Source: an uncultured Eubacteriales bacterium
GTDB taxonomy: Bacteria > Bacillota > Clostridia > Oscillospirales > CAG-272
NCBI GenBank assembly: GCA_934385225.1
Contig: CAKRPQ010000001.1
Coordinates: 4,876 to 68,875, forward strand
DNA length: 64,000 nt
Direction of reading: 5' to 3'
Shown: positions 11,543-63,168 of the stretch, in pieces
Layout: each line of letters opens with the position of its first letter
Position numbering within the stretch: the stretch's first letter is position 1
The notes under the pieces: generated by a model
Databases searched by the model: none
What the model saw: only the letters and a program-made list of their open reading frames with translations
Told to the model about the DNA's origin: nothing
Translations under genes and position numbers: made by a program

Positions 11543-11564
11543 ATGTAAATGCAATATGTCATAT

Positions 11565-11602
11565 CGGGGTGTGGCGCAGCTGGTAGCGCGCGAAGTTTGG
11601 GA
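11565..11602 (+). pseudogene. 5'-half copy of tRNA-Pro (acceptor 5' arm, D arm, anticodon loop); no 3' half
   Basis: 11563-11593 is identical to 11780-11810 of the intact gene. One mismatch follows, then GTTTGGGA is again identical. Downstream sequence cannot form the anticodon stem or a T arm. Confidence 0.6.
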
Positions 11603-11700
11603 GCGTGTGACCGCCTCGTGAGCCGACCGCCGAAAGCTCGCAAAATCTCCGTTTTTCTCGCGTTTCCTCGCTTTTCCGCCGCCGTGTGTTTCGGAAAAAA

Positions 11701-11742
11701 CTTTTGACCACAGATAAAACTTTTGACCACAGATTTGACCAC
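11701..11742 (+). repeat. direct repeats CTTTTGACCACAGAT x2 plus TTGACCAC (arm-site-like)
   Basis: Copies at 11701-11715 and 11720-11734, with a partial copy at 11735-11742. A related TTTTGACCGCA lies at 11868-11878, just 3' of the tRNA. Confidence 0.7.
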
Positions 11743-11781
11743 TTACGGATTAGACCGCAAAAACCGAATATTTTCACCAAT

Positions 11782-11857
11782 CGGGGTGTGGCGCAGCTGG
11801 TAGCGCGCGACGTTTGGGACGTCGATGCCGTCGGTTCGAATCCGGCCACTCCGACCA
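11782..11857 (+). tRNA. tRNA-Pro (anticodon UGG), CCA encoded
   Basis: Manual cloverleaf. Acceptor CGGGGTG/CACTCCG. D arm GCGC-AGCTGGTA-GCGC. Anticodon arm CGACG-TTTGGGA-CGTCG (UGG, G37). T arm GTCGG-TTCGAAT-CCGGC. Discriminator A followed by CCA. Total 76 nt. Confidence 0.93.
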
Positions 11858-11880
11858 AAAAACGCGGTTTTGACCGCATG

Positions 11881-11914
11881 AAAGCCGCAAAGTTGGGTTA
11901 CTTTGCGGCTTTTT
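11881..11914 (+). terminator. rho-independent terminator after tRNA-Pro
   Basis: AAAGCCGCAAAG (11881-11892) pairs with CTTTGCGGCTTT (11901-11912), followed by a T-run. Confidence 0.65.
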
Positions 11915-11938
11915 ATCACATCAAGAAAGGATTATGCA

Positions 11939-13042
11939 ATGATTATTTTAAGACAAGGCAAGGCTAAAAGGATTTTGGATGGGTCCATAAATAGCGCCCT
12001 AACCGCCGTTGAAACATATAATCGCCCTCGTACTTTGTTTAGAATCGAAAATTATATAGTCCTTATGATTATTGCTTGGACAAAATTATTTCATGCCTTC
12101 TTTCAAAGCGAAATTGGCGAAAGGTATTTTTACAAAGAAAAAAATGGGCGCTATAAAAAAATTGATGGTGAAAAGAAAGCTTGGGAGTTAACTGAGTGCA
12201 TTAGAGAATATCAGAAATTAAGAAAATCCTATTCCAATCTGTCAGAAGCAACCGTTGCTAATTTAAACTTTTTCATTGGGTTGCGTAATAAAATTGAACA
12301 TCGATATTGGGACGGATCATCATTGGATATTCTTCTTTTTGGTGAATGTCAAGCACTATTGTTTAATTACGAAACCTTGATGGTAACGTTATTTGGCGAT
12401 GATTATTCAATAAACACATGTCTTGCGTATGCTCTTCAATTTTCACACTTACGTGCCCAAGAGCAAATAAAAGCGCAAAGAGATTTATTGTCAAAAGATA
12501 TGCAAGACATAAAAAAATACATTGACAAATATAAAACCGATTTGCCACAAGAAATTTTTGACAGTCAAGAGTACAGCATAAAACTATTACAAATCCCTAA
12601 AATAAGTAACGCCAATCGCCACGATTTGTCTGTCGAGTTCGTCAATTGGAATACTTTGAATGATGAAGATAGAGAAAACTACAACAGAATTAGTACAATT
12701 ATTAAAGACAAAGTGATTGTTCAAAGGGTATCAAATGCAAGTTTGATGCGCCCTTGCGATGTTATCAATGCCGTGAAACAGCAATCCGGGGTTAACCTAT
12801 CATACAACGACCATACACTTCTTTGGAAGTGCTTTAAGGTTCGTCCACAAACAAATAGTGGTGCGAAATTTGATACGATTCCCAGATACTGTATCTACGA
12901 CGAACCACACAACGATTATCTTTACTCGGAAGATTGGGTGAGCATTATTGTTCAATTGCTTCGTGAGAGAATTATTACTAAAGAAACCATTCGTGAGTTT
13001 TGCGCTCAATCCCGAGCTATTTCCGAGTACGAATCACGTTAA
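11939..13042 (+). CDS. DUF3644-like protein (unknown function) in an AT-rich islet
   Basis: ATG 11939 with AAAGGA 8 nt upstream; the track's TTG 11903 lies inside the terminator. The N-terminus SINSALTAVETYNRPRTLFRIENYIVLMIIAWTKLFHAFF resembles the DUF3644 signature as I remember it. The gene is clearly more AT-rich than its flanks. Confidence 0.8.
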   Translation: MIILRQGKAKRILDGSINSALTAVETYNRPRTLFRIENYIVLMIIAWTKLFHAFFQSEIGERYFYKEKNGRYKKIDGEKKAWELTECIREYQKLRKSYSNLSEATVANLNFFIGLRNKIEHRYWDGSSLDILLFGECQALLFNYETLMVTLFGDDYSINTCLAYALQFSHLRAQEQIKAQRDLLSKDMQDIKKYIDKYKTDLPQEIFDSQEYSIKLLQIPKISNANRHDLSVEFVNWNTLNDEDRENYNRISTIIKDKVIVQRVSNASLMRPCDVINAVKQQSGVNLSYNDHTLLWKCFKVRPQTNSGAKFDTIPRYCIYDEPHNDYLYSEDWVSIIVQLLRERIITKETIREFCAQSRAISEYESR

Positions 13043-13114
13043 TTATTTGCGTATTTTTTCTTTGTCTACCGCAACCCCAATATTGAAGGGCGACCGTTCG
13101 TGGTCGCCCCTTTG

Positions 13115-13562
13115 CTATGCCTGTTTTGCCTTTTTCTTTTCGGTTGCAATTTCCGCTTTCATCGTTTTTATCAGCTCTGCCAGCTTCTCCTCGCACTCCT
13201 CCCGCGTGGTGGCGCAGGTCGTGAAACCGCACCCGCTTGCAGTTTGCGCGTTCCAGTATCTTCTGAAACCGATGATAGACCGCCGAAGGGTGTCGCGGTT
13301 GCGTGAGGTCAAGCGGGGACGGGAAAATCCATTCACTGTCGGTTCGCGTTTTCAGTTCTGCCATCAGTTCGAGCATTTCGGACGGCAACAGAATCATGCG
13401 GTTGGAGGATTTCGTTTTCGGTGTGGAGATCAGCACCTTTCCGTTGACCTTCAGCACCTGCCGCGAGATGTGCAGCTCACCTGTTTTCAGATTCAGATCC
13501 CGCCATTTCAGCGCGAGAATTTCGCCTGTCTTTGCAACAGCGGCGGGCTGTCTCTTATCCAT
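13115..13562 (-). pseudogene. scrambled tyrosine-recombinase (integrase) remnant
   Basis: ORF 13017..13562 carries GEILALKWRDLNL...TPKTKSSNRMILLP...RVRFHDLRHH (box II HxxR). It lacks the box I Arg context and the catalytic Tyr region. After HDLRHH only a shifted frame (ORF 13115..13336) makes sense, reading REECEEKLAELIKTMKAEIATEKKKAK, which is an integrase N-terminal-linker-like segment. Confidence 0.7.
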
Positions 13563-21598: not shown

Positions 21599-22546
21599 TT
21601 ATCCGAATCTGACCTGTTTATAATGCTCTGTCTCCTCCGCGTTTCCGAACACCATATGACCGTTTCCGATATCGACAAGGCTCGGCTTTTCGGTCTCGTA
21701 ATGATGTATCGACGGGTCATAGACGAACAGTTTCTTGTTCTTCTCTATGATCGGGTCCGGAACGGGTATTGCGGACATAAGCGACTTTGTATAGGGGTGA
21801 AGCGGGTACTTGAAGAGTTCCTCCGTCTCGGCGATCTCCATAATGCGTCCCTTATAAATAACGACGATACGGTCGCTTATAAAGCGGACTATCGAGAGGT
21901 CGTGCGCGATGAAGAGGTAGGTAAGTCCTCTTTCCTTCTGGAACTTTTTGAGAAGGTTAAGCACCTGCGCGCGTATCGACACGTCGAGTGCGGAAATAGG
22001 CTCGTCCGCAACGATAAATTCAGGCTCCATTACGAGCGAACGCGCAAGACCGACACGCTGACGCTGACCGCCCGAAAACTCGTGCGGGTAACGTGTGAGG
22101 TGTTCGGGAAGAAGTCCGACCTCGCGCGTGATGTTCTCTATTTTCGCCATTCTGTCCTTCTCGTCCTTGTAAAGGTGGAAGTTGTAAAGTCCCTCGGAAA
22201 TGATATATTCTATCGTCGCGCGCTCGTTAAGAGAAGCGGCGGGATCCTGGAATATCATCTGAATTTTTCTGATCACTTCGCGGTCGTCCTTGCGGGAGAG
22301 TTTACCCGAAATCTTTTTACCGTCGTAGTAGATCGCGCCCGCGGAGCAGGGGTTGATACGGACGATTGCTCTGCCTATCGTCGTTTTGCCCGAACCCGAC
22401 TCGCCGACAAGAGAAAGCGTTTCGCCCTTGTAGATATCGAAGCTGACGTTGTCAACCGCCTTGAACGACTTCCTGCCGCGTCCGAAAACGACGTCAAGAT
22501 TCTGTATAGACAGGATCGGTTTCTTCTCGCTCTTATTGCTATCCAT
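21599..22546 (-). CDS. oppF: oligopeptide ABC transporter ATP-binding protein
   Basis: Walker [10 protein letters not shown], signature FSGGQRQR, Walker B FIVADEP, and a C-terminal oligopeptide-type extension. AGGAGG RBS. Confidence 0.9.
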
Positions 22547-22557
22547 AACGCTCCTCC

Positions 22558-26934: not shown

Positions 26935-26963
26935 GACACGAACGCTATAATTAAGTTTTTCAT
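26931..26963 (-). CDS. 10-codon upstream ORF (MKNLIIAFVS) overlapping the oppB start (ATGA)
   Basis: AAGGAAAAGGAG lies 10 nt upstream of ATG 26963. Its TGA (26933-26931) overlaps the oppB ATG (26934-26932). oppB itself has no purine-rich RBS. Confidence 0.3.
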   Translation of the reverse strand: MKNLIIAFVS

Positions 26964-27341
26964 TAACTATATTCTCCTTTTCCTTGACTTTCCGTCTTTA
27001 TTACAGGTATTTTTCACTTTCGCTTGAAAACAAAAAAAAGCCGACTTCTCCATTCACGACCGTCCGAGGTCCCTGAACAAAGAACTTAGCTTTTTCTGCC
27101 GTACTTTACACAAGTCTGGGCGCCGGTCTTTAATAAAAATCGTACCCGAACGCGCGAAACACGCCGTTATCAGCTTTATTTTGAGCCAACCGCAGCGGGT
27201 TCCGCGTGTCCGAGACGAAAATTTATGATTTAGGAAATCATTACGTCGGTGTGACCGCCGCGCGAGCCGTCTGCCGCCTGTGCATTTCTGCCGTCGGGAC
27301 GCCTCTGCGCGGTAAAATCACGCCTTAAAGTTATCCGGTTA

Positions 27342-29671: not shown

Positions 29672-29820
29672 TGGGCATTATGCACAATATTTAATATCCG
29701 TCTTTGTGAACTTTTCACCAAAACGAGAGAAAAAGGGGCAAAAAAGGAACACAAAATGGCGATTTTGTGAACATAAAGTGTGCATTTAATGTACGAAGCG
29801 GAAAATTCGCGAGATTTTTT

Positions 29821-30220
29821 TATAGTCGGGGCGGTTGTGCTTGGATTATCGCAAACGACACCCCCGACTTTGCCTCCCCTGTGTACAAGGGGAGGCGGCG
29901 GAGGAGCGCAAGCCCTCCGACGGAAGGGTTGTCCGTCTATCTGCTGACGTGTGGTCTTGCAGTCTCAATCGACGCCCTTTCTTTTGACGTAGCAGGCGCA
30001 AAAGAAAGGGCTTAGCCCAAAGAAAAGCGCCGAGAACATTTCGCCTCTCCATCGTGCTTCGGGAAGAACCGTAGGTTCTTCATAGTCGGGGCGGTTGAAC
30101 TTGGACTAAATCGGACTTCACCCCCGACTTTGCCGTCTGCGGACGGCGACAAGGGCTATGCGCCCTTGACCGCACCGCCTTTTGCAAAAGGCGGGCGAAA
30201 ACTCTCAATCAAAGGCTGGA
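29821..30220. repeat. hairpin-module array A
   Basis: Module order is b'-c-d-e-f-g-a-b'-h-i-j-k (see findings). Examples: AGTCGGGG...CCCCGACT at 29824-29869 and again at about 30084-30130; GCCGTCTGCGGACGGC at 30132-30147. Confidence 0.85.
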
Positions 30221-30226
30221 GGTCAC

Positions 30227-32791: not shown

Positions 32792-33580
32792 ATGACGGTT
32801 TTTGGCTTTTTGTTGTTCAAAATCGTCTTTTGCGGCGGTGTACAAATGAAAATAACAGAACTTTATACCTACGGCAGGAAAACGGTCACGGGGACATGGC
32901 ATATTTCACACGCCACGACAGTAAGCAGGCTCTATTTCCCGCACACGGGCGGAGCATATTACATTTCGGGCGGCGTGAAAACCTTCTTCGAGCCGGGGAA
33001 AGTGTATCTTTTGACGTCCTCCGAGCATTATACGCTCGGTCTTTGCGACGGTGCGTCGTTCGACCACACCTATTTTGACTTCGACATCATTCCGCCGCTC
33101 TCGTCCCCGCTGATTCTGCCCGCCGCAGGGGTTCTGTCGCACGCGTGCAGATACTGCGACGAATTGATTTCGGAATTTCGGGAACGTCCCGACTGGCTCG
33201 CCGATTTTATGACGGCGGAGCTTGACAACATACTCCTTTTCATCGAAAAAACAGAATACCCGCAGAGGGTTTCGGACGCACGCATTGAAGAAGCGATGAG
33301 CTTCATACGCGAAAATTTCTCGCGACCGATAACGGTAAGCGACATAGCGGCTCGCGTTCATCTTGAAAAAACGTATCTTATCGAGCTGTTCAAAAGGACG
33401 GTGCGCATGACGCCGCACGTCTATCTGCGCGCGTATCGCCTCGACCGTGCGGAGGCGATGTTAAGATCGGGAATATCCGTCGGTGACGCCGCGCTTCTTT
33501 GCGGTTTTGAGAGTACCTCGTCCTTTTCGCACACTTTCAAAAAATCGCGCGGATACCCGCCCGCGGAATTTCGCCGATAG
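32792..33580 (+). CDS. AraC-family transcriptional regulator, divergent from the fucosidase
   Basis: C-terminal double HTH (ITVSDIAARVHLEKTYLIELFKR...GFESTSSFSHTFKK). ATG 32792 has GGGAGG 7 nt upstream. An alternative start is MKITELY at 32846. Confidence 0.85.
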   Translation: MTVFGFLLFKIVFCGGVQMKITELYTYGRKTVTGTWHISHATTVSRLYFPHTGGAYYISGGVKTFFEPGKVYLLTSSEHYTLGLCDGASFDHTYFDFDIIPPLSSPLILPAAGVLSHACRYCDELISEFRERPDWLADFMTAELDNILLFIEKTEYPQRVSDARIEEAMSFIRENFSRPITVSDIAARVHLEKTYLIELFKRTVRMTPHVYLRAYRLDRAEAMLRSGISVGDAALLCGFESTSSFSHTFKKSRGYPPAEFRR

Positions 33581-33651
33581 AGGCAAGGCAATACCGAAAA
33601 ACGGTGCTGCCGCTTTCGTGACAACACCGCTTCCATATGTACCTTTCGGAA

Positions 33652-33825
33652 TCAGTCTTCCTTGGGTGCGCCTACGGGACAGACACCTGCGCAAGCACCG
33701 CACTCGATGCACTTTTCGGGATCGATAACGTACTTACCGCCGTCCTCGGAAATAGCTTCTACGGGGCACTCGCTCGCGCAAGCTCCGCAGCCGAGGCATT
33801 CTTCTTCGTTAATCTTATAAGCCAT
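33652..33825 (-). CDS. 2x[4Fe-4S] ferredoxin (57 aa; below the ORF-track cutoff)
   Basis: MAYKINEEECLGCGACASECPVEAISEDGGKYVIDPEKCIECGACAGVCPVGAPKED contains two CxxCxxCxxxCP motifs. GGAGG RBS. Confidence 0.85.
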   Translation of the reverse strand: MAYKINEEECLGCGACASECPVEAISEDGGKYVIDPEKCIECGACAGVCPVGAPKED

Positions 33826-33946
33826 GGTTTTACACCTCCAAAATATTTATGATGTTAATATTGTACCACATTTATCGTAAATTGCAATAGTTTTGCGTAA
33901 AAAATTTATTACCAATTCTTAAAATATGCGTTTTTTCGCGCGTAAA

Positions 33947-37675: not shown

Positions 37676-37774
37676 ATTTTTTCCTTTCAGAGAGGTTTTC
37701 GAGTTGTTGAAAATTCTTTTTCAAAGCAATTTGTCATTTTGTTTAATCAAATGAAGCCGACTCCCGCTTTTTCT

Positions 37775-38056
37775 CCCATGCGACAGGCGCTCTCTCTTTT
37801 TAGCCTCCCTTGTGTAAAGGGAGGTGGATTGCCACGAAGTGGCAAGACGGAGGGATTGTTTCTACACCGCCGTGAAGATATGCAGTCCCGTTTTCCACTT
37901 TTTCTTTGACACCACAGGCGCAAAGATAAAAGCATAGATGCCTTCGGCATCTCACAAAAAGAAACGCCGAGAACATTTCGCCGTCTGCGGACGGCGACAA
38001 AAGGCTCTGCCTTTTGAATCCGCAAGCCTTTGAAAAGGCTTGACCTAAACTTTATA
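37775..38056. repeat. hairpin-module array B
   Basis: Contains GCCTCCCTTGTGTAAAGGGAGG, GCCGTCTGCGGACGGC (37980-37995), AAAAGGCTCTGCCTTTT (within 37996-38020) and CAAGCCTTTGAAAAGGCTTG (38023-38042). It lies downstream of the radical SAM gene. Confidence 0.85.
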
Positions 38057-38071
38057 ATCGTTTTTTGCCTG

Positions 38072-41520: not shown

Positions 41521-41541
41521 TTTGGGTTAAAGATACAAAAA

Positions 41542-41576
41542 GAAAACAGGGATTTTACGATCCCTGTTTTCTTTTT
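41542..41576 (+). terminator. rho-independent terminator after pepF
   Basis: GAAAACAGGGA (41542-41552) pairs with TCCCTGTTTTC (41561-41571), followed by TTTTT. Confidence 0.7.
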
Positions 41577-41599
41577 GTTTTCGGAGAGCGGGAGGGAAA

Positions 41600-42275
41600 T
41601 TCGGGCTTCACCGCGACTTCGCCTTTTGTGCTGTATGTCGGGAAGAATCCGCAAGGATTCTTCATAGGTGGAGCAGTTTATACTTGGATTTTATTAGACT
41701 TCACCTCCACCTTCGCCTTTTGTGCTGTATGTCGGGAAGAATCCGCAAGGATTCTTCATAGGTGGAGCAGTTTATACTTGGATTTTATTAGACTTCACCT
41801 CCACCTTCGCCTTCCCCGGTGGCGGGAAGAGACTTTCCATAAAGGAAAGTCAGACCGCGATAGCGGTGGATGAGGTGTTGCGAACACTTTTAGCGGAACT
41901 TCACGTCGTGTTTAGGCTCCCTTGTGTAAAGGGAGCTGTCACCGCAGGTGACTGAGGGATTGTCTATCCGCCGAGGTGCAGTCGTGCAGCACCATTTAAC
42001 GCCTTTTCTTTTGGTGTTGCAGGCACAAAAGAAAAGGCTTTGCGAAAAGAAAAGTGCCGCAAGAGGGTTTCGCTCTCTGCGGAGAGCGACAAGGGCTATG
42101 CGCCCTTGACCGCACTCGCCTTTTGAAAAAGGCGAGACCCAAAACTTTCGACAAAGGCGAGGTGAAAACTTTCAACAAAGGCTTGACCTAAACTTTCACT
42201 AACTTTTTTGCCTCCCCTTTATTCTTTGATAAAGGGGAGGTGGCACGAGCGCAGCGAGTGACGGTAGGGTTCTCC
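41600..42275. repeat. hairpin-module array C
   Basis: Module order is (a-b)x2, c, d/e, f (42001-42038), g, h' (42072-42087), i (42088-42110), j (42115-42136), k, plus an extra CCTCCCCTTTAT...ATAAAGGGGAGG hairpin at about 42211-42240. It lies between convergent pepF and spoIIE. Confidence 0.85.
41617..41814 (+). repeat. 94-bp tandem duplication inside array C
   Basis: 41617-41710 and 41711-41804 are identical when read base by base. The first ~10 nt of a third unit follow. The duplication produces twin ORFs at 41628 and 41722. Confidence 0.9.
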
Positions 42276-42282
42276 TTCCCCG

Positions 42283-44796: not shown

Positions 44797-45002
44797 TTTG
44801 TGACCCTGCCTTTTCTTCTCCCGGCGGGTCGCTGCCGCGAAAAAATCATACCCGCCGTTTTTTTGTGAGTACATTTTATAACACGGGTGCTTAAAATCGC
44901 GTCGGAATCGGTAGGCGTTTATTTTGCGCGGCAAAGGGCGGAAATTGCGGCGATTGTCGGGGAAAAGCCGCTTATAAGCCTTTGCGCGGGCGGAAATGAC
45001 GG

Positions 45003-45039
45003 AAAAAAAGCGACGGGCAAAATACCTGTCGCTTTTTTT
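45003..45039. terminator. terminator downstream of spoVM (bidirectional architecture)
   Basis: A-run, then GCGACGGG (45010-45017) paired with CCTGTCGC (45025-45032), then a T-run (45033-45039). Confidence 0.6.
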
Positions 45040-45093
45040 CGAACGATTTTTTTAATATTTTTTTCCGCGGGGCATAGAATTAAAGGTTTATCC

Positions 45094-45165
45094 CTACTTC
45101 TTCTTTTTGATGCCTTTAAGTATTCCCGCGATAAACTTCGGCGGCCGCCAGACGTAGATTTTCAT
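45094..45165 (-). CDS. spoVM: stage V sporulation protein M (23 aa; below the ORF-track cutoff)
   Basis: MKIYVWRPPKFIAGILKGIKKKK compared with B. subtilis SpoVM MKFYTIKLPKFLGGIVRAMLGSFRKD (from memory). The shared pattern is MK-x-Y...PKF-x-x-GI. GGAGGTG RBS lies 6 nt upstream. Confidence 0.65.
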   Translation of the reverse strand: MKIYVWRPPKFIAGILKGIKKKK

Positions 45166-45222
45166 TATGTACACCTCCGAAAACGTCTTCACCGAAAGTA
45201 TATTCCGTCTTCACCGAAAGTG

Positions 45223-55889: not shown

Positions 55890-56528
55890 TTAAAATCTTA
55901 TCTTCATTTCTTTCGCGACGCCGAGAATGCGCGCGTCTCCGCACTCAAAATCTTCGGGCGTCAGCACTATCGGTTCGTAATCTTCGTTTTCGGGGACAAG
56001 GTATATGCGGCGGTTTTCGGTGTGGTATCTCTTGACCGTCGCGCTTTCGCCGTCGACAAGGCAGGCGACGATGTCGCCCTCCTCCGCGTACTGCTGCTTT
56101 CTGAAAAGAACGAGCGAGCCGTTCACCATACCGCAGTTCTTCATACTGTCGCCGAACACCGAGAGGTAGAAGTAGTCCCGCGGGTCTTCGCCGCGCGAAA
56201 TGTCCGCCGTCTCGTAGCCGATCAGCGTTTCGTTCGTGATTATAGGTTTTCCCGCTCTTATCTCGCCTATTATGGGTATCCGAATGTTTCCGCCGATCTC
56301 CTCTTCGTCCGTGAGCGAAATTTCCGAGAGATCGACGTCGTCGCCGACGAGTTTCGAGATGTCAACGCCGAAATAATCCGCGATGAGGCGCATCTTATCC
56401 GCCTTCGGCACACTCCTGCCGTTTTTCCAGTCGGAAAGCGTCGAGGGCGCAATTCCCGTAGCTTTTGCGACCTTATATGAGGTCGATTTTTTCATATTCA
56501 GCAGTTTTTCGTAATTCGAATAACTCAT
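55890..56528 (-). CDS. XRE-HTH + S24 peptidase repressor (LexA/CI-like, self-cleaving type)
   Basis: The N-terminal HTH is YKVAKATGIAPSTLSDWKNG. A candidate cleavage site is RAG-K. The Ser is in FGDSM and the Lys in TVKRY. AAGGAG RBS. Confidence 0.85.
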   Translation of the reverse strand: MSYSNYEKLLNMKKSTSYKVAKATGIAPSTLSDWKNGRSVPKADKMRLIADYFGVDISKLVGDDVDLSEISLTDEEEIGGNIRIPIIGEIRAGKPIITNETLIGYETADISRGEDPRDYFYLSVFGDSMKNCGMVNGSLVLFRKQQYAEEGDIVACLVDGESATVKRYHTENRRIYLVPENEDYEPIVLTPEDFECGDARILGVAKEMKIRF

Positions 56529-56581
56529 ATATAACCTGTCTCCTTTTTGTGCAAAACGACAAAACTTCCAAAATAGGAAAG

Positions 56582-56638
56582 ATTTCCGAAATATGCACTT
56601 GACAATAGTTCGGTTTTGCGATATAATAGTTCCGAAAT
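56582..56638. promoter_or_regulatory. two 11-bp palindromic candidate operators bracketing the divergent promoter
   Basis: ATTTCcGAAAT at 56582-56592 is a perfect palindrome. AGTTCcGAAAT at 56628-56638 has one mismatch. The motif AATAGTTC(C/G)G also occurs twice (about 56604-56613 and 56626-56635). Confidence 0.4.
56599..56627 (+). promoter_or_regulatory. sigma-A promoter (exact consensus) for the Zn-ribbon/sigma-like gene pair
   Basis: TTGACA (56599-56604), 17 nt, TATAAT (56622-56627). Confidence 0.6.
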
Positions 56639-56759
56639 GTGAACTACGCTGTCCGCTATCCGAAAAGCCCCGTTTTCGGTTTGCACGATTTACAGTTCAG
56701 TATATCACATTTCCCCTCAAAAGTCAACACATAAAAGCATTTAAGGAAAGGAACAATGA

Positions 56760-56993
56760 ATGACGAGAAACGAAAAAAATTATCTGAAAAGCTCTGAATG
56801 TGAAGGTGAAAAGCCGAGGTACTGCCGTGTTTGCGGCGAAATTATACCGAAAGGCTGTTACTATGTGAATTTCAGAGGAAAAAGCGTATGTTGCACCTGC
56901 ACATTCGAAATGAAGTCGGAGGAAATAATTCGGATTTGCGAACTCAAATCGCCCGAGAAAACGCCTGACAGGCACGGATTTACGCATGAATGA
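56760..56993 (+). CDS. small Cys-rich (zinc-ribbon-like) protein
   Basis: 77 aa with CRVCGEIIPKGC...CCTC. AAGGAAAGGA RBS. It overlaps the next gene by 8 nt. Confidence 0.5.
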   Translation: MTRNEKNYLKSSECEGEKPRYCRVCGEIIPKGCYYVNFRGKSVCCTCTFEMKSEEIIRICELKSPEKTPDRHGFTHE

Positions 56994-57390
56994 TTTCCTC
57001 GGGGTATCTGCCGTGCAAAAAGAAAAGACAAAGACCGTCGAATTTCTCGAAAGTTACAGAACGAACAAGCGAATGCTCGATATGATGCGCTACGAAAAGG
57101 ATTATTTTTCGGACAGAGAGCGCGGCACGGAGGCGGAAAAGGACGATTTTCTGCTGCTTCCGGGCGGCGACGAGGTTCTGCTGAAAAACAGAATGTACAC
57201 CGTGCGCCGCTTCATTATGAGCCTTGGCGACAGCGACCAGAAAACGCTGCTTTTTTACCACTACATAAAAGGATTTTCGGTTGAAAAGTGTGCGGAGCTG
57301 ATGAACATAGGCAGAACGAGCGCATTCCGCCTGAAAAAGAAGGCACTCGAATCGGCGAAGAACGTGTACGACGAGAAATTCACCGCATAA
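56986..57390 (+). CDS. sigma-70 region-4-like / ArpU-type small transcriptional activator
   Basis: 134 aa. The C-terminus QKTLLFYHYIKGFSVEKCAELMNIGRTSAFRLKKKALE is a region-4 HTH. The N-terminus LESYRTNKRMLDMMRYEK resembles phage/ICE late activators. Confidence 0.65.
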   Translation: MNDFLGVSAVQKEKTKTVEFLESYRTNKRMLDMMRYEKDYFSDRERGTEAEKDDFLLLPGGDEVLLKNRMYTVRRFIMSLGDSDQKTLLFYHYIKGFSVEKCAELMNIGRTSAFRLKKKALESAKNVYDEKFTA

Positions 57391-57402: not shown

Positions 57403-57434
57403 AAAAAAACAGGGACGAAAGTCCCTGTTTTCTT
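57403..57434 (+). terminator. rho-independent terminator (GNRA tetraloop)
   Basis: A-run, then CAGGGAC (57410-57416), loop GAAA, GTCCCTG (57421-57427), then TTTTCTTGTT. Confidence 0.65.
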
Positions 57435-57454
57435 GTTAAACGACCGTGAGGTTG

Positions 57455-58135
57455 TTTTTTAGCCTCCCTTGCCATAAAAAGTCGGTAAAAGTTTTGGTCA
57501 ACCTTTTTCAAAAGGGTGCAGATTCAAAAGGCAGAGCCTTTTGTCGCTCTCCGCAGAGAGCTAAGTCGGGGGTGAAAAAAGCGATGACCTCAATTCTACC
57601 GCCCCGACTATGAAAACCCTACGGTTTTTCCCGAAGCACGATGTGGAGGAGAAATGTTCTCGGCGCTTTCTTTTTGTGAGATGCCGAAGGCATCTATACT
57701 TTTATCTTTGCGCCTGTCGCATCAAAAGAAAGGGCGTTATTGGATACTATGCAACCGCACGGCTACATTAGCCTCCCGTTGTACTTCGGGAAAAACCGTA
57801 GGGTTTTCATAGGTGGAGCAGTTTACACCCTCTATTATTGCAGACCTCACCTCCACCTTTGCCTCCCCTGTGTAAGGGGAGGTGGCGGAGGTGCGCAAGC
57901 CCTCCGACGGAAGGGTTGTCCGTCTGCGTGCCGCCGTGAAGTCGTGCAGCACTCATTAACGCTCTTTCTCTTGATGCGACAGGCGCAAGAGAAAGAGCTT
58001 CGCAGAAAGAGAAGCGCCGAGAATGTTTCGCCGTCTGCGGACGGCGACAAGGGCTATGCGCCCTTGACCGCACTCGCCTTTTGTAAAAGGCGAGACGAAA
58101 ACTTTCAGTCAACGGCGAAGCTAAACTTTCACCCG
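57455..58135. repeat. hairpin-module array D (two sub-arrays in inverted orientation)
   Basis: The left half (about 57480-57770) carries modules k,j,i,h,b',a,g,f as reverse complements. The right half (about 57785-58135) carries a,b,c,d,e,f,g,h,i,j,k forward. Confidence 0.85.
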
Positions 58136-58139
58136 TCCC

Positions 58140-58403
58140 TCATATCTGTTTATGAACGCTCTTATATTCATCATAATACTTATAATACGGGCAGCCTCTC
58201 ACGCTCCGCGAAACAAACGCAAGCATTTCGTCCTCATCAAGCGACATCATACAGCGATAGCAGTCCTCGTCCTCATCGTAATCGTAATATTCGCATTCCT
58301 CGCAGCAGGTACTTCTTTTCCGTGCGGACGGCAGCTCTTTTTCCTCTTTTTCGCGCTCCGACTTCGGCACATAATGCGTTTTATCCCATGCTCCGTCGCT
58401 CAT
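58140..58403 (-). CDS. small acidic Cys-rich protein (DUF6472-like, tentative)
   Basis: 87 aa with CCEECEYYDYDEDEDCYRC...LDEDE...CPYY. It overlaps the GtrA-like gene by 4 nt. Confidence 0.6.
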   Translation of the reverse strand: MSDGAWDKTHYVPKSEREKEEKELPSARKRSTCCEECEYYDYDEDEDCYRCMMSLDEDEMLAFVSRSVRGCPYYKYYDEYKSVHKQI

Positions 58404-58825
58404 TTTCCGCTCTTTCCTTTCCTGAAAACGATCAGTTTACTTATGAAATAGTTCAGAATGACCACAATGACGGACGCCGCGATCTTCACGGCGTATTTAT
58501 TATATTTGAGCCTATCGTAAAGTCCCCAGACGATTGCCTCCTGCAAGAGGAGCGTAAGAACTCTTCCGCCCGCGAACTCCGTTATCTCGCGCACGACGGG
58601 CAGAAAACCTCTCGCGCGGCTTTCAAAGACCCATATTTTATTCGTCACATACGCGAACGCGACGGCGGCGCACCATGCGGCAACGTCCGAAACGTGCACA
58701 TTCGTTTTCGTCCTGTAAAGGAGAAAACTGACGGCAAAATCGACGACGGTCGTAAGTCCGCCGAAAATGAGGTACATAAGCGCCTCGCGGTATTTAATGA
58801 CGAGATTTTTGATTTTTTCGAACAT
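58400..58825 (-). CDS. GtrA-family membrane protein
   Basis: 141 aa with 4 TMs. LMYLIFGGLTTVVDFAVSFLLY is a typical GtrA N-terminus. Confidence 0.8.
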   Translation of the reverse strand: MFEKIKNLVIKYREALMYLIFGGLTTVVDFAVSFLLYRTKTNVHVSDVAAWCAAVAFAYVTNKIWVFESRARGFLPVVREITEFAGGRVLTLLLQEAIVWGLYDRLKYNKYAVKIAASVIVVILNYFISKLIVFRKGKSGK

Positions 58826-58831
58826 TTACCT

Positions 58832-60256
58832 TTACCCACCGATTTTGTAGGTTGTTCCCTCGCGCGAATCGACGAGAGTTACGCCCTTATCCGAAAGATA
58901 CTTGCGTATTTCGTCCGCTCTCGCGAAATTCTTCGCCTTTTTCGCCTCTGCGCGCTCCGCAATAAGGCTTTCTATCTCCTTTGCAAAGTCCTCGTCGATT
59001 TCGGGCGTGCTCGGCTCTGCGTTTTTCAGTTTTTCGGCGTGCGCGACAAGGTCGAGCGACAGAACGCGGTCAAAATCGGCGACAAGCGCGAGCTTTGTCG
59101 CGTCACCCGCGCCCGATTTAAGCACGTCGTAGAGAGCGGTCACGGCGAGAGACGTATTGAGGTCGTTATCGAGTGCGTCGGTAAAGCCTTTTTTAAGCTC
59201 TGCGAACTTCGCCCCGTCGACTTCCCCGTCCTCTTTAAGCGTCGCGATCTTCTTTATGAGTTTATCGTATGCGACGGCGGCATTGTCGAGATTTTCGTAG
59301 CTGAAAACGAGCGACTTGCGGTAATGCGAGCCGAGGCAGAAGAAGCGGTACACCATCGGGTCGTATCCTTTTTCTTCGAGGAGAGAGACGGTGAGGAACT
59401 CGCCCTTTGACTTCGACATTTTGCCGTTTGTAGTGTTGAGGTGATGGACGTGGAACCAATAGTTGCACCACTTATGACCGAGATAAGCCTCGGACTGCGC
59501 GATCTCGTTCGTATGATGCGGGAAAGCGTTGTCGATGCCGCCGCAGTGAATATCGAGATATTCGCCGAGGTGTTTCATCGAGATGCAGGAACATTCGATG
59601 TGCCAGCCGGGGTAGCCGACGCCCCAGGGCGAATCCCATTTGAGCGCCTGGTCTTCGAACTTCGATTTTGTGAACCAGAGGACGAAATCGTTCTTGTTTT
59701 TCTTATTGTTATCGGCTTCGACGCCATCTCTGACGCCGACGGCAAGGTCTTCCTCGTCGATGTTGCCGAAAACGTAGTATTCTTTCAGCTTTGAGGTGTC
59801 GAAATAGACGTTTCCGCCCGCAATGTAGGCGTATCCCTTGTCGAGGAGCGCGGAAATGACCTTTATGAAGTCGTCAATGCAGTGTGTTGCGGGTTCAACG
59901 ACGTCGGGGCGCTTTATGCCGAGCTTTTCGCAGTCGGCGAAGAACGCGTCGGTGTAGAATTTTGCTATTTCCATAACGGTTTTGTGTTCGCGCTTTGCGC
60001 CTTTGAGCATTTTGTCCTCGCCCTCGTCGGCGTCGGAGGTCAGATGACCGACGTCGGTGATGTTCATAACGCGTTTAACGTCGTAACCGATGTAGCGGAG
60101 GTATTTTTCGAGTACGTCCTCCATGATGTAGGAGCGGAGGTTGCCTATGTGCGCGAAGTGATAGACAGTCGGACCGCAGGTGTACATTTTGACCTTGCCC
60201 GGCTCGCGCGGAATAAATTCTTCTCTTTTTCTTGAAAGTGAATTGTAGATGTACAT
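58832..60256 (-). CDS. cysS: cysteinyl-tRNA synthetase
   Basis: Start re-called to MYIYNSLSRKREEF (ATG 60256, AAGGAG RBS). HIGH is present as HFAHIGN and KMSKS is present. Confidence 0.93.
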   Translation of the reverse strand: MYIYNSLSRKREEFIPREPGKVKMYTCGPTVYHFAHIGNLRSYIMEDVLEKYLRYIGYDVKRVMNITDVGHLTSDADEGEDKMLKGAKREHKTVMEIAKFYTDAFFADCEKLGIKRPDVVEPATHCIDDFIKVISALLDKGYAYIAGGNVYFDTSKLKEYYVFGNIDEEDLAVGVRDGVEADNNKKNKNDFVLWFTKSKFEDQALKWDSPWGVGYPGWHIECSCISMKHLGEYLDIHCGGIDNAFPHHTNEIAQSEAYLGHKWCNYWFHVHHLNTTNGKMSKSKGEFLTVSLLEEKGYDPMVYRFFCLGSHYRKSLVFSYENLDNAAVAYDKLIKKIATLKEDGEVDGAKFAELKKGFTDALDNDLNTSLAVTALYDVLKSGAGDATKLALVADFDRVLSLDLVAHAEKLKNAEPSTPEIDEDFAKEIESLIAERAEAKKAKNFARADEIRKYLSDKGVTLVDSREGTTYKIGG

Positions 60257-60299
60257 TATATGTCTCCTTTGTTTTAAGAACGTTGTGTTGAGATTTGGG

Positions 60300-60855
60300 G
60301 TGCCGTTTGTTGAAAAGTGAACAACCCTTCCGTCGGAGGGCTTGCGCACCTCCGCCACCTCCCCTTACACATGGGAGGCTGAAAAACGGGGTGAAAGTTT
60401 CGCTCGCCGTTTATTAAAAGTTTTCGTCTCGCCTTTTTCAAAAGGCGAGTGCAGTCAAGGGCGCATAGCCCTTGTCGCCGCTCGCAAGCGGCGAAATGTT
60501 CTCGGCGTTTCTTTTTGTGAGATGCCGAAGGCATCTATGCTTTTATCTTTACGCCTGTCGCATCAAAGAAAAAGCGGAAAACGGGACTGCACGACTTCGC
60601 GTCAGCGGAAAAACAATCCCTCAGTCACCTATCTGCCGAGGTGAAGTCTTGCAGTGCCTATTAACGCCCTTTCTTTTGATGCGACAGGCGCAAAAGAAAG
60701 GGCTTTGCCCAAAGAAAAGCGCCGAAAAGAAGTTTCGCCGTCTGCGGACGGCGACCGCCGTCGTCGGCGGCTCACGCAAACTTTTGAAAAAGTTTGATCA
60801 AAACTTTTAACAAGCGGCGAGACGAAAACTTTTAACAAACGGCGAAACTTTCGTC
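60300..60855. repeat. hairpin-module array E, between cysE and cysS
   Basis: Reverse-orientation modules d,c then k,j (60428-60449), i (60454-60476), h'' (60477-60492), g,f,e,d. These are followed by forward e, f (60666-60703), g, h (60737-60752), an extra CCGCCGTCGTCGGCGG hairpin, and k-like AAAACTTTT repeats. Confidence 0.85.
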
Positions 60856-60858
60856 GTT

Positions 60859-61587
60859 TTACTTCCTTTCGAGCTTCGCTATCCGCTCTTCGAGCCGTTT
60901 TATCTCCGCCGCAACGGGGTCGGGTATGTGTATCTGGTCAAGATCGGCATTCTCGCCGACTTTCTTTCCGTATCTGCGCACGACTTTCGCGGGTATTCCC
61001 ACAGCCGTACTGTCGGGCGGTATCTCCGTCAGCACAACCGCGCCCGCCGCAACTTTTGAATTATCGCCTATCTTCATCGGTCCCAGCACTTTCGCGCCCG
61101 CGCCTATCATGACACCGTTTCCGAGCGTCGGGTGTCTCTTGCCGACGTCCTTACCCGTTCCGCCGAGCGTTACGCCCTGATATACCGTACAGTCGTCACC
61201 TATCTCAGTCGTCTCGCCTATGACAACAGCCGCGCCGTGGTCGATGAAAAACCGCTTCCCTATCGTCGCGCCCGGGTGTATCTCTATTCCCGTGAAAAAC
61301 TTCGCAAGCTGGCTTATCGCCCGCGCCCCGAAATAGTGTTTTCCGAGGTAGAGTTTATGCGAAACCCTATACGCAAGGATCGCGTGCAGTCCCGAATAGA
61401 GGAAAACCACCTCCGCGTCGCTCTTTGCGGCAGGGTCGCGCTCGCGAAAAGTCTTTACCTCCTCGCGCACGTCGTCAAACGGCTTCGACATTCTGTCACA
61501 CGCACGAACCGCGCGTTTCATTATTCTTTTTCCGACGGCTTTTGCGTCTCTCGCAAGCTCCGCGCCGTCAAACATTATTTTTTTCAT
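60859..61587 (-). CDS. cysE: serine O-acetyltransferase
   Basis: Start re-called to MKKIMFDG (ATG 61587). Hexapeptide-repeat core GIEIHPGATIGKRFFIDHG...VIGETTEIGDDCTVYQGVTLGG. The C-terminus is a coiled-coil tail. Confidence 0.9.
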   Translation of the reverse strand: MKKIMFDGAELARDAKAVGKRIMKRAVRACDRMSKPFDDVREEVKTFRERDPAAKSDAEVVFLYSGLHAILAYRVSHKLYLGKHYFGARAISQLAKFFTGIEIHPGATIGKRFFIDHGAAVVIGETTEIGDDCTVYQGVTLGGTGKDVGKRHPTLGNGVMIGAGAKVLGPMKIGDNSKVAAGAVVLTEIPPDSTAVGIPAKVVRRYGKKVGENADLDQIHIPDPVAAEIKRLEERIAKLERK

Positions 61588-61628
61588 AAAAAATTCCGTC
61601 CTTTCGCGAAAAATTCGGGATAGAAAAC

Positions 61629-61899
61629 AAAAAGCTCCGCACCGACGCACAAAAACATCGGTACAGAGGCGTATAGACATAAAAACGCTGTTCCACTCTG
61701 CTTCGCCGCCATATGGCGACCTCTCGTTCCCTTAACGCGGTTTTTTACGCCGCGCGATACTTGCCTTCTTCTTTACAGGCTTTCTCGTGCGGGTCTCGGC
61801 GGAGGCACAGCCCGACTTTCCGCCGCCGTCGCTCCCAGCCCACTGGCGACCGCTCTCTTTCGCGTTTTTTGTCGGATTCTTTCCGCTTCACTGACTTTA
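61629..61899 (-). ncRNA. T-box riboswitch leader upstream of cysE(-cysS)
   Basis: Read on the minus strand. AGAGAG and a GTGGG-containing distal loop lie in a stem-I-like region. A T-box-like sequence CAGAGTGGAACAGCG sits at 61699-61686. The terminator GCCTCTGTACCGATG / CGTCGGTGCGGAGC (61670-61634, with G-U pairs) is followed by TTTTT. Candidate Cys codon lies in GGGCUGUGCC. Confidence 0.6.
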
Positions 61900-61905
61900 C
61901 ACTAT

Positions 61906-61935
61906 ATTATATACGCTCCGCGTCGCATTTGTCAA
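61906..61935 (-). promoter_or_regulatory. putative sigma-A promoter for the T-box/cysE transcript
   Basis: On the minus strand: TTGACA (61935-61930), 18 nt, TATAAT (61911-61906). Confidence 0.45.
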
Positions 61936-61991
61936 GAGTTTTGAAAAATTTCGGGCAACATTTTTTGCGTTTTCGGCGCGGAATTTCTGTC

Positions 61992-62020
61992 TTGACTTTT
62001 TCGCCGCCGTATGGTATAGT
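61992..62020 (+). promoter_or_regulatory. putative sigma-A promoter for the GH5-like gene
   Basis: TTGACT (61992-61997), 17 nt, TGgTATAGT (-10 at 62015-62020). Confidence 0.5.
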
Positions 62021-62055
62021 ACCCTTAACGAAAAAACCGAGAGGGAGATAAAACT

Positions 62056-63168
62056 ATGGATACCCGGTCGAAAGAAAAAATATGGGACTGGTACGGCTCG
62101 CGTCCGTGGATACGCGGCTGCAACTTTATGAGCAGCGACTGCGCGAACCGCATAGACCAATGGCAGGAATACGGCTTTGAAAAGCGTCTTGAAACAGCCG
62201 ACAGAGAGCTTGCCGTCGCGGAGGAGATCGGCTACAATTCGATACGCATAATTCTCGAATTTGAAGTCTGGGACAGGCAGCACGACGGCTTTATGCGCCG
62301 ACTCGACAAGTACCTCGAAACAGCCTACAAACACGGCATTGACGCGATGGTAGTCCTTGCAAACGACTGCTGCGTTCCGAAGTCGCTCTACAAGCCCGTC
62401 GTTTTCGGCGAGCAGCACTACGACGTCGGCTATCACGGAGGCAGAAAGAGTTCGCCGCACGCGGCGTACGCTTCGGCGGACAACGAGGAGCGTTATCACC
62501 CGCTCGACGAGCCGGAGATCCGCGAGCGCTACTACAAAATGGTAAAAGAGATAATCACCGAATATGCGCACGACGAGAGAGTTCTCATCTGGAACCTCTT
62601 CAACGAGCCGGGCAACAACCGCGGTAACAAGAGCCTTCCCTACATCGAAAAATTCTTTGAGATTGCGCGGGCGATAAACCCGATGCAGCCTCTTTGCGCC
62701 GACACGTGGAACGGCGTCGACGAAAACGGCAGAGCGAAGAACCTCATCGAGCAGCGCGTCCTCGAACTCTCGGACATTGTTAGCTTCCACGGCTACGAGC
62801 CGTACAATGAAACCGTCGATATGATAGCGAACCTCAAAAAGACGGGCAAACCGATCTTCAACACCGAATGGCTTCACCGCATAGCGCACAACACCGTTCA
62901 GGAGATATTCCCGCTTATGTATCTTGAAAAGATCGCGTGCTACAACTGGGGCTTTGTCGCGGGCAAGTACCAGACGTACGAGCCTTGGGAATCGGTATGG
63001 CAGGAGTACGAAAAGAACCCGAAAGCGGACATAGACTTCACGAAATGGCAGCACGACCTTATCCGTCCGAGTCTGCGCCCCTACGACCCGCGCGAGATCG
63101 AAATAATCAAGAGATACTGCGACCGCGCCGACAGGGATTTTGAGCGAGAGAACGGAGAAAAAGGTTAA
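62056..63168 (+). CDS. clan GH-A glycoside hydrolase (GH5-like)
   Basis: IRGCNFMSSDCANRIDQWQ...GYNSIRIILEF...WNLFNEPGN (the NEP acid/base block). GGGAG RBS. The 451-aa minus ORF at 61897..63252 is a shadow. Confidence 0.8.
   Translation: MDTRSKEKIWDWYGSRPWIRGCNFMSSDCANRIDQWQEYGFEKRLETADRELAVAEEIGYNSIRIILEFEVWDRQHDGFMRRLDKYLETAYKHGIDAMVVLANDCCVPKSLYKPVVFGEQHYDVGYHGGRKSSPHAAYASADNEERYHPLDEPEIRERYYKMVKEIITEYAHDERVLIWNLFNEPGNNRGNKSLPYIEKFFEIARAINPMQPLCADTWNGVDENGRAKNLIEQRVLELSDIVSFHGYEPYNETVDMIANLKKTGKPIFNTEWLHRIAHNTVQEIFPLMYLEKIACYNWGFVAGKYQTYEPWESVWQEYEKNPKADIDFTKWQHDLIRPSLRPYDPREIEIIKRYCDRADRDFERENGEKG

Follow-up and report, generated by a model that had tools for sequence, protein, structure and literature searches.

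A hairpin-rich array parting cysE from cysS in an uncultured gut Oscillospirales bacterium is probably an inserted dispersed repeat

This report concerns a 64-kb stretch of DNA (64,000 nucleotides, hereafter the window) from an uncultured gut bacterium of the Clostridia (Oscillospirales), and in particular the hairpin-rich DNA that parts the genes for serine acetyltransferase (cysE) and cysteinyl-tRNA synthetase (cysS) of a T-box-led operon. We find that this spacer, here called array E, is very likely an insertion of a dispersed repeat from which four more intergenic arrays of the window (arrays A-D) are built. The whole account, which we consider likely, is that the gap owes its content to the lineage-specific insertion of a repeat that is dispersed, non-coding and rich in hairpins and resembles repetitive extragenic palindromes (REP), bacterial interspersed mosaic elements (BIME) and REP doublets forming hairpins (REPIN), and that RNA polymerase reads through it, with side effects on expression. 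The coordinates of all features are collected in Table 1.

The evidence for a dispersed repeat begins with its copies. When the spacer was compared with the window by BLAST, nearly all of its parts were found again at 80-98% identity in arrays A-D, where the order of the pieces and their orientation are shuffled and colinear blocks reach 200 bp; together the five arrays occupy ~2.7 kb, or ~4% of the 64-kb window. A core profile built from aligned copies (7-11) of the best-conserved block finds eight copies in the window and describes a unit of ~180 nt that consists of a T end, the hairpins H3, H2 and H1, a conserved linker and the hairpin H4. The T end is made up of one to four units of ~25 nt with the motif RAAAGTTTY, H3 is CTCGCCTTTT..AAAAGGCGAG, H1 is TCGCCGTC-CGCA-GACGGCGA, H4 has a 13-bp stem, and H2 is CAAGGGC-GCATA-GCCCTTG or either of two unrelated hairpins that can occupy its slot. 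The linkers between the hairpins, for example CGGCGCTTTTCTTT, are conserved, and the orientation of the units alternates, both in array E (E1 minus, E2 plus) and in array D (D1 minus, D2 and D3 plus).

The repeat is also found beyond the window. A pattern scan revealed six more metagenome contigs with solitary copies of ~150-235 bp in other gene contexts, and at the L094 locus an array of ~650 bp has a MatE gene on one side and a GH26 gene on the other. In ~0.9 Mb from 80 other Oscillospirales species, the core gave faint partial matches only. The open reading frames (ORFs) of the gap have no real homologues: a spurious array ORF searched against a set of 5.8 billion proteins gave three matches, all of them in other arrays, and two of these yielded further array loci (L094 and L098). 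No array match was found among PLSDB plasmids or INPHARED phages (BLAST, distant mode) or in IMG/VR (pattern scan), and nothing therefore points to carriage by a plasmid or phage. The T end is located 0-80 nt past the stop codon of the upstream gene in nine copies that are solitary or outermost. A rule by which the T end always faces an upstream stop codon was dropped, as the L094 copy has its T end beside the start of the downstream gene; what the T ends do is point outward from paired arrays. In terms of GC skew, orientation relative to transcription is not separable from orientation relative to replication.

The arrays contain more than the core. Array C includes a 94-bp tandem repeat (2.2 copies, 97% identical) whose unit is a 45-nt hairpin (GGTGGAGG...CTCCACC) followed by GAAGAATCC-TTGC-GGATTCTTC, and H8/H9 blocks akin to this repeat split the core of array A and are also present in array D. 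The occurrence of these related blocks in arrays A, C and D points to at least one second element type nested in the arrays. On contig L092 (1683-1981), a solitary copy stands between direct duplicates of a 27-bp terminator hairpin (AGCCGGTGTGCTTTATGCGCACCGGCT), and the element looks as if it had been inserted into, and had duplicated, a bidirectional terminator.

Comparison with relatives provides the second body of evidence. The best CysS matches among GTDB species representatives are 72-81% identical, and the same strain is present in Hadza human-gut assemblies. The cysE-cysS spacer measures 57 bp or less in 40 of 50 related loci (median ~18 bp), and in the nearest sister species (CysS 84%) the site is empty: the spacer is 4 bp in L084-L086 and 28 bp in L087, the same T-box precedes cysE, the same gtrA and DUF6472 genes lie downstream, and ~32 kb of these loci contain no repeat modules. 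In three strains of the species itself (CysS at least 99%), an array of 602, 587 or 615 bp occupies the same site. The strains differ by a 23-bp deletion of a T unit and by a module swap near cysE; in L098 (1995-2609), a block of ~130 bp in E2 has been exchanged for a ~75%-identical homologue with compensatory hairpin differences, and the flanks are 100% identical. Such a block replacement appears to be the signature of ectopic conversion between dispersed copies. Between strains, array E is 95.0% identical; the figure for third codon positions in its flanking genes is 96.2%, and the array thus seems to evolve at about the synonymous rate. The other arrays vary too. A 178-bp segment of array D is present or absent among strains (window 57608-57812 versus L083 8449-8466); it is edged by a perfect 29-bp inverted repeat, each arm of which holds the palindrome AAAACC-GTAG/CTAC-GGTTTT, and the strain that lacks it (L083) keeps a single hairpin of the AAAACC-GTAG-GGTTTT type. 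Array B shows a 19-bp length variant. In short, array E was inserted right after the cysE stop codon and is fixed in the species and structurally fluid.

Two observations on contigs of relatives and of the species stand beside these comparisons. Hairpin-rich cysE-cysS spacers occur in two other Oscillospirales metagenome-assembled genomes (MAGs), L002 (2796-3390, 593 bp; CysS 79%) and L027 (5752-6001, 248 bp; CysS 74%); these spacers share no sequence with array E and were gained independently. Many contigs of the species break off within array A, B or E (L082, L106-L110, L116-L118), and its short-read assemblies are therefore fragmented by the repeat family.

What does array E itself look like? 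Its minimum free energy is -277 kcal/mol compared with -185 +/- 6 kcal/mol in shuffled sequences (z = -14.4), and the antisense strand folds as strongly as the sense strand. Local folding yields ~16 stem-loops with at least 6 pairs, in agreement with an earlier preliminary description of this DNA, which had counted more than a dozen stable hairpins. These hairpins are unequal units, irregularly spaced and mutually different. Repeat analysis resolves them into a nested imperfect palindrome of 460 bp (60393-60852) plus a tail (60281-60385); the outer ~40 bp of the palindrome arms are 97% complementary (60393-60433 versus 60816-60852), and the inner parts 73-88%. The palindrome is composed of element copies E1 and E2, inverted and tail to tail, with T ends that face outward and form the ~40-bp outer stem; the T end of E1 begins right after the cysE stop codon, with the first hairpin at 60838-60858. 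The tail block, H5-H6-H7 with its end motif TTTTCAACAAA..AAATCTCAAC, is also found in arrays A and D and in contigs L090 and L092. The final 17 nt before the cysS ATG (AACAAAGGAGACATATA) resemble the short spacers of relatives (AACAACATAGGAGACATTT in L004, ACAACAAAGGAAATAAAAA in L010) and are the surviving part of the original intergenic region. The preliminary description had the entire gap filled by the array; the hairpins do fill it, except for these last ~17 nt, the ancestral spacer with the ribosome binding site (RBS) of cysS.

Known repeat and RNA classes do not account for the gap. Tandem Repeats Finder reports there only a 24-nt unit present 2.2 times (60394-60444), and a reading as a CRISPR or a simple tandem repeat was discarded, given hairpins that differ, irregular spacing and a single short tandem unit. 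Rfam 15 gave no match in the gap at the gathering score or at E<=10 (60100-62100), apart from chance-level matches with E>0.8; the Rfam matches overall are the T-box and a tRNA only (64-kb window at the gathering score, 60100-62100 at E<=10).

The hairpins bear the mark of structural maintenance. In an 11-copy alignment, 92.6% of the cells of the four core hairpins are paired, and changes on both sides are seen in 16 of 38 pairs, a number reached by none of 500 shuffles and compared with at most 5 in slid controls; RNAalifold agrees with this compensatory-change pattern. Double-change cells number 40 and one-sided (G-U type) cells 5. Neither folding energy nor G-U count shows strand asymmetry in any of the five arrays. 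This strand symmetry, together with the near-lack of G-U intermediates, argues that the palindromes are constrained or homogenised as DNA and not as one-strand RNA. In other words, the hairpins appear to be kept at the DNA level by almost purely Watson-Crick compensatory changes.

The operon into which the array was inserted is otherwise tight, and here most of the preliminary description stands: the coordinates of cysE and cysS and the 602-bp gap between them are correct, the T-box and promoter that it placed upstream of cysE are both there (an RF00230 match and TTGACA-18-TATAAT, respectively), and the good RBS that it ascribed to cysS is AAAGGAGA, 7 nt from the ATG. The T-box match is full-length (model positions 1-219) and scores 67 bits (E 7e-14), below the Rfam gathering score of 93; the assignment as a T-box leader is supported by this full-length match, by a terminator, by the leaders of relatives and by the conserved specifier UGUGC, which offers the Cys codons UGU/UGC and is kept at the specifier position when the leader is aligned with those of five relatives. 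A T-box precedes cysE in 6 of 6 relatives tested, and the gtrA-like and DUF6472 genes are co-linear with cysE-cysS in all close relatives. The T-box, cysE, cysS, gtrA and DUF6472 thus look like an ancestrally tight single T-box-controlled unit, and the earlier claim of one T-box operon is borne out by the conserved leader and the median spacer of the relatives. The first canonical terminator 3' of the operon is the hairpin at 57403-57434.

How, then, is cysS transcribed? Promoters were sought by two scans for the sigma-70-type consensus, one standard and one laxer, and neither detected a promoter of sigma-70 type on the gap's sense strand: no hexamer pair reaches 8/12 with the key -10 bases in place, and towards cysS the array ends without anything like a -10 element. 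To this extent the earlier statement that no -35/-10 pair precedes cysS is upheld. The sense strand of the gap contains two weak terminator-like hairpins only, at 60754-60735 (tail AACTTCTTTT) and 60342-60323, and the gap is without the G+C-rich hairpins with an immediate U-run by which an intrinsic terminator or an attenuator array would be recognised; across the ~2.7 kb of the arrays, weak sense-strand hairpins of this type number only three (0-1 in arrays A-D). Because there is no recognisable promoter and there are only two weak terminator-like hairpins, read-through is the simplest route to cysS expression, as the preliminary description had supposed when it had cysS depend on transcription through the array, and it seems probable that cysS is expressed by read-through from the T-box promoter. 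Array A lies between a PP-loop ATPase gene and an SBP_bac_5 gene, and the latter has a promoter of its own beyond the array; arrays B and E have no such promoter behind them. Arrays C and D, in convergent contexts, lie between the stop codon of a minus-strand gene (spoIIE and the DUF6472 gene, respectively) and a strong palindromic terminator by the other gene (at 41535-41578 in the case of array C). Since a stop codon precedes them and the first strong terminator follows them, they are most likely transcribed as long 3' untranslated regions (3'UTRs).

From these data we propose the following course of events. Two inverted units with their T ends outward, together with a fragment of a third block, would have landed between the cysE stop codon, which they directly follow, and the surviving ~17-nt spacer that holds the cysS RBS. 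The palindromes would since have been kept at the DNA level, and copies would swap blocks by recombination or conversion, such that the gain and loss of ~20-25-nt units and the exchange of blocks give rise to the mosaic. Transcription would start at the single promoter, run past the Cys T-box and cross the array, which offers RNA polymerase neither a promoter nor an efficient intrinsic terminator on the sense strand; in the resulting polycistronic mRNA, cysS would be translated from its own RBS and so would still be under T-box control. By analogy with REP clusters of E. coli, the structured spacer of ~580 nt probably alters the cysE:cysS ratio: the upstream segment may be shielded from 3' exonucleases, the polymerase may pause or partly terminate, and RNase III might cut the 40-bp outer stem and so add to the shift. 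These effects on expression would be consequences of selfish or neutral DNA, not the work of an evolved regulator, and any effect of the array on cysS expression is most likely a by-product.

Other explanations deserve to be weighed against this one. Could the array hold a promoter of its own, non-consensus or read by an alternative sigma factor? The cysS, gtrA and DUF6472 genes would then be T-box-independent and uncoupled from cysteine sensing. An essential synthetase gene that is separated from its promoter by 600 nt of hairpins invites an internal start, mobile repeats sometimes come with outward promoters, and the scans were limited to the sigma-70 consensus; moreover, the T end of array B contains TTGAAA-17-TATAAT (11/12), though on the antisense strand. 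Nevertheless, we regard an internal promoter as unlikely given the lack of a sense-strand pair reaching 8/12 with the key -10 bases, the bare cysS-proximal end, and the fact that a promoter in arrays C and D, which occupy the place of a 3'UTR, would have no gene to serve. More doubtful still is an evolved cis-acting RNA (an attenuator, an RNase III or RNase Y processing site, or a stabiliser) selected to set the cysE:cysS ratio. There is something to be said for it: compensatory changes keep the stems, the E1 and E2 T ends would pair into a ~40-bp near-perfect duplex that is a typical RNase III substrate, a hairpin begins exactly at the cysE stop codon, the L002 and L027 lineages gained hairpin-rich spacers independently, and REP clusters of E. 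coli show measurable effects of this kind. However, the sister species have intact operons without the array, the same modules are found in unrelated contexts and in both orientations, the equal folding of the strands and the few G-U intermediates favour constraint at the DNA level, and the array diverges between strains at a near-synonymous rate and by block replacement. The preliminary description had offered three designed roles, namely processing and stability element, attenuator, or carrier of a promoter; for a repeat that is dispersed over four other arrays and unrelated contigs, that is absent from the sister species and whose strain copies diverge almost synonymously and swap blocks, these roles find no support. 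It had also named absence of the array from close relatives, with no effect on operon structure, as an outcome that would count against its reading; the orthologous spacers of 4 and 28 bp in the sister species do lack the array and the operons there are intact, where operon structure refers to gene layout alone.

A large structured non-coding RNA gene of the ROOL, GOLLD or OLE type, or a riboswitch or additional leader of cysS, would suit a length of ~600 nt, an extremely stable fold and helices that covary. This explanation is largely refuted, and we consider it very improbable, as no Rfam family matches in the gap, the array is mosaic, strand-symmetric and multi-copy with a shuffled module order, and it is not conserved beyond the species. 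Finally, repeats might have been collapsed or mis-joined in metagenome assembly, and assemblers evidently struggle here, since several conspecific contigs end inside arrays; an artefact is nonetheless scarcely credible, because independent assemblies from different samples (L081, L083 and L098) span cysE, array and cysS with the same flanks and near-identical content.

Our own reading, a dispersed repeat insertion that is read through, faces several observations that weigh against it. Arrays A and B show no presence/absence polymorphism among more than 20 conspecific contigs, all of which carry them; present-day mobility thus lacks proof, and recombination alone could account for the spread of the arrays. 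No target-site duplication is seen at array E, and no mobilising enzyme came to light in the DNA searched: a tblastn search with a hand-written IS200-type TnpA consensus gave no match in the window and ~1 Mb of loci, and Pfam scans of 25 window proteins detected no REP-associated tyrosine transposase (RAYT; a Y1 HUH transposase). Also, some single hairpins are near-identical in genomes at ~73% CysS identity, which is unexpected for pure junk and hints at constraint (e.g. a binding protein) or at horizontal transfer. Such single hairpins, for example CCTCCCCTGTGTAAGGGGAGG, recur in small hairpin clusters of distant MAGs. Among the hairpins of such small clusters that are near-identical at ~73% CysS identity is CCTCCCC-loop-GGGGAGG (L032 75-95; L076 2103-2123; L080 1094), which holds an anti-Shine-Dalgarno-like CACCTCC and a Shine-Dalgarno-like GGAGG.

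These conserved hairpins bring to mind another possibility, which we think improbable: the ~180-nt element would be the cis partner of a vertically inherited host protein in gut Oscillospirales, and arrays that lie within operons, such as that of cysE and cysS, would serve as RNA-level insulator or processing modules. Such a system could be analogous to that of REPIN and RAYT, though its enzyme would be another one and its recognition structure composite; the strictly Watson-Crick compensation and the near-identity of single hairpins across genera fit it. If this were true, the host could retune the ratios of co-transcribed genes and leave their promoters untouched.

Table 1. Positions in the window of the cysE-cysS operon, the parts of array E and the other repeat arrays
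Feature	Position	Strand	Description
cysE	60859-61587	minus	serine acetyltransferase, 242 aa; hexapeptide acetyltransferase
cysS	58832-60256	minus	cysteinyl-tRNA synthetase, 474 aa; tRNA-synt_1e domain
cysE-cysS spacer	60257-60858		602 bp
Operon promoter	61906-61935	minus	TTGACA-18-TATAAT, 12/12 (perfect consensus), upstream of cysE
T-box leader	61662-61900	minus	RF00230 match upstream of cysE; UGUGC at specifier position
T-box terminator hairpin and T-run	61635-61668	minus	upstream of cysE
gtrA-like gene	58400-58825	minus	downstream of cysS
DUF6472 gene	58140-58403	minus	downstream of gtrA-like gene
Strong terminator hairpin with T7	57403-57434	minus	bidirectional by inspection
Element copy E1	60661-60858	minus	T end, two H1-type hairpins, X, H4; profile 108 bits
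Central region	60582-60660		79 nt between inverted E1 and E2; two hairpins, partly pairing with each other
Element copy E2	60387-60581	plus	T end, H3, H2, H1 variant, H10, H4 variant; profile 174 bits
Tail fragment	60281-60385	minus	H5, H6, H7, then end motif TTTTCAACAAA..AAATCTCAAC
Ancestral spacer remnant with cysS RBS	60257-60273	minus	AACAAAGGAGACATATA; non-repeat
Array A	29820-30226		core 29971-30217 (minus), interrupted by H8/H9 block
Array B	37745-38071		core 37892-38054 (minus); between radical-SAM gene and peptidase U32 gene
Array C	41590-42282		core 41995-42173 (minus); 94-bp tandem repeat 41606-41813
Array D	57440-58139		cores D1 (minus) 57955-58134, D2 (plus) 57646-57739, D3 (plus) 57485-57564

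The window has further features of its own. A tRNA-Pro(tgg) gene (11782-11857, plus strand) is overlapped in its 5' part by one copy of a 40-bp direct repeat (11563-11602 and 11780-11819); after it come a DUF3644 gene of low GC (11939-13042) and an ORF for a truncated phage integrase (13017-13562). The conspecific strain L100 departs from the window after ~11715. The region 11563-13562 resembles the relic of an island that had integrated at the tRNA-Pro gene. Beside array D lie a gene for a LexA/CI-like repressor (HTH_3 and Peptidase_S24; 55890-56528) and a DUF1492 gene (56986-57390), and the region 55890-57390, with its small unannotated ORFs, may be a prophage remnant. Other large gaps (21721-22557, 26935-27341, 33362-33946 and 44875-45222) contain no hairpin repeats and give no Rfam match at the gathering score.

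Our search of a paper library turned up no account of such repeats in Clostridia. Uncultured gut Clostridia of the Oscillospirales can evidently carry abundant mosaic repeats like REP and BIME, a kind described almost only in Proteobacteria, and such repeats can fill ~4% of a genome stretch, break metagenome assemblies and sit inside essential operons. The cysE-cysS pair amounts to a natural experiment, in which either a 4-28-bp spacer (in the sister species) or ~600 nt of hairpins (in this species) stands behind the same T-box, such that the effect of a repeat on read-through, on mRNA stability and on the stoichiometry of an amino-acid-sensing operon is directly measurable. There is a warning for annotation here as well: a hairpin-rich intercistronic region is not always a regulatory device.

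How does the array compare with systems that are already known? Bacillus subtilis has a T-box-controlled gltX-cysE-cysS operon. As there, a Cys T-box stands before cysE in the present species and cysS follows downstream in one transcription unit; there, however, cysS follows directly, whereas here a 602-bp repeat array parts the two genes. With regard to the repeat, the REP and BIME elements of Enterobacteria are likewise palindromic hairpins outside genes, and their clusters are mosaics in which orientation alternates and the linkers are conserved; they too are found after stop codons, between co-directional operon genes or convergent genes, at lineage-variable sites; and, as with the many imperfect extragenic palindromes of those genomes, the same hairpin types are present here in five arrays and on other contigs. 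REP effects are known from the REPs between malE and malF, and REPs near stop codons affect translation. In the yjdMN operon of E. coli, REP325 has been reported to terminate transcription in part and also to stabilise the mRNA upstream of it (bioRxiv 10.64898/2026.03.23.713779). REP clusters are cotranscribed, as our arrays probably are, and in E. coli their partial-terminator and upstream-stabiliser effects are documented. REPs are defined by a conserved GTAG (or CGTC) tetranucleotide at the foot of the palindrome (PMC3733652). Hairpins H1-H5, in contrast, have no conserved GTAG or CGTC at the stem foot: the CGTC inside H1 is not conserved among copies, and GTAG appears only as the loop of the minor hairpin AAAACC-GTAG-GGTTTT. 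The unit is also a ~180-nt composite of at least four different hairpins instead of a single palindrome of 20-40 nt, and the host is a gut bacterium of the Clostridia (Oscillospirales). Because there is no GTAG/CGTC tag, the unit is composite and no RAYT was found in the limited DNA searched, membership in REP/BIME proper is not supported.

REPINs, which are inverted REP doublets mobilised by RAYT transposases in Pseudomonas, offer a closer look at the pairing of units. Array E differs from them in size (a pair of ~460 bp as opposed to ~100 bp), in arms that are only ~80% complementary outside the T ends, and in that the DNA searched yielded neither a RAYT nor another single-copy partner gene. 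Like them, it pairs two inverted units whose conserved ends face outward, and the solitary units elsewhere resemble half-elements; apparently vertical inheritance within the species and compensatory stem evolution are further points in common. Modular repeats like miniature inverted-repeat transposable elements (MITEs) include BOX and RUP of Streptococcus pneumoniae, Correia of Neisseria, and ERIC. The array has the ~40-bp, 97% complementary termini, the small size and the lack of coding capacity of a MITE; the direct duplication at L092, by contrast, is 27 bp long as opposed to the classical 2-9 bp, and no target duplication is seen at the edges of array E. Set alongside our arrays by description only, BOX, RUP, Correia and ERIC are similarly non-coding, shorter than 600 bp, intergenic, often cotranscribed and strong in secondary structure, and in BOX, as in our family, the number of internal units is variable (boxB there, T-end units here).

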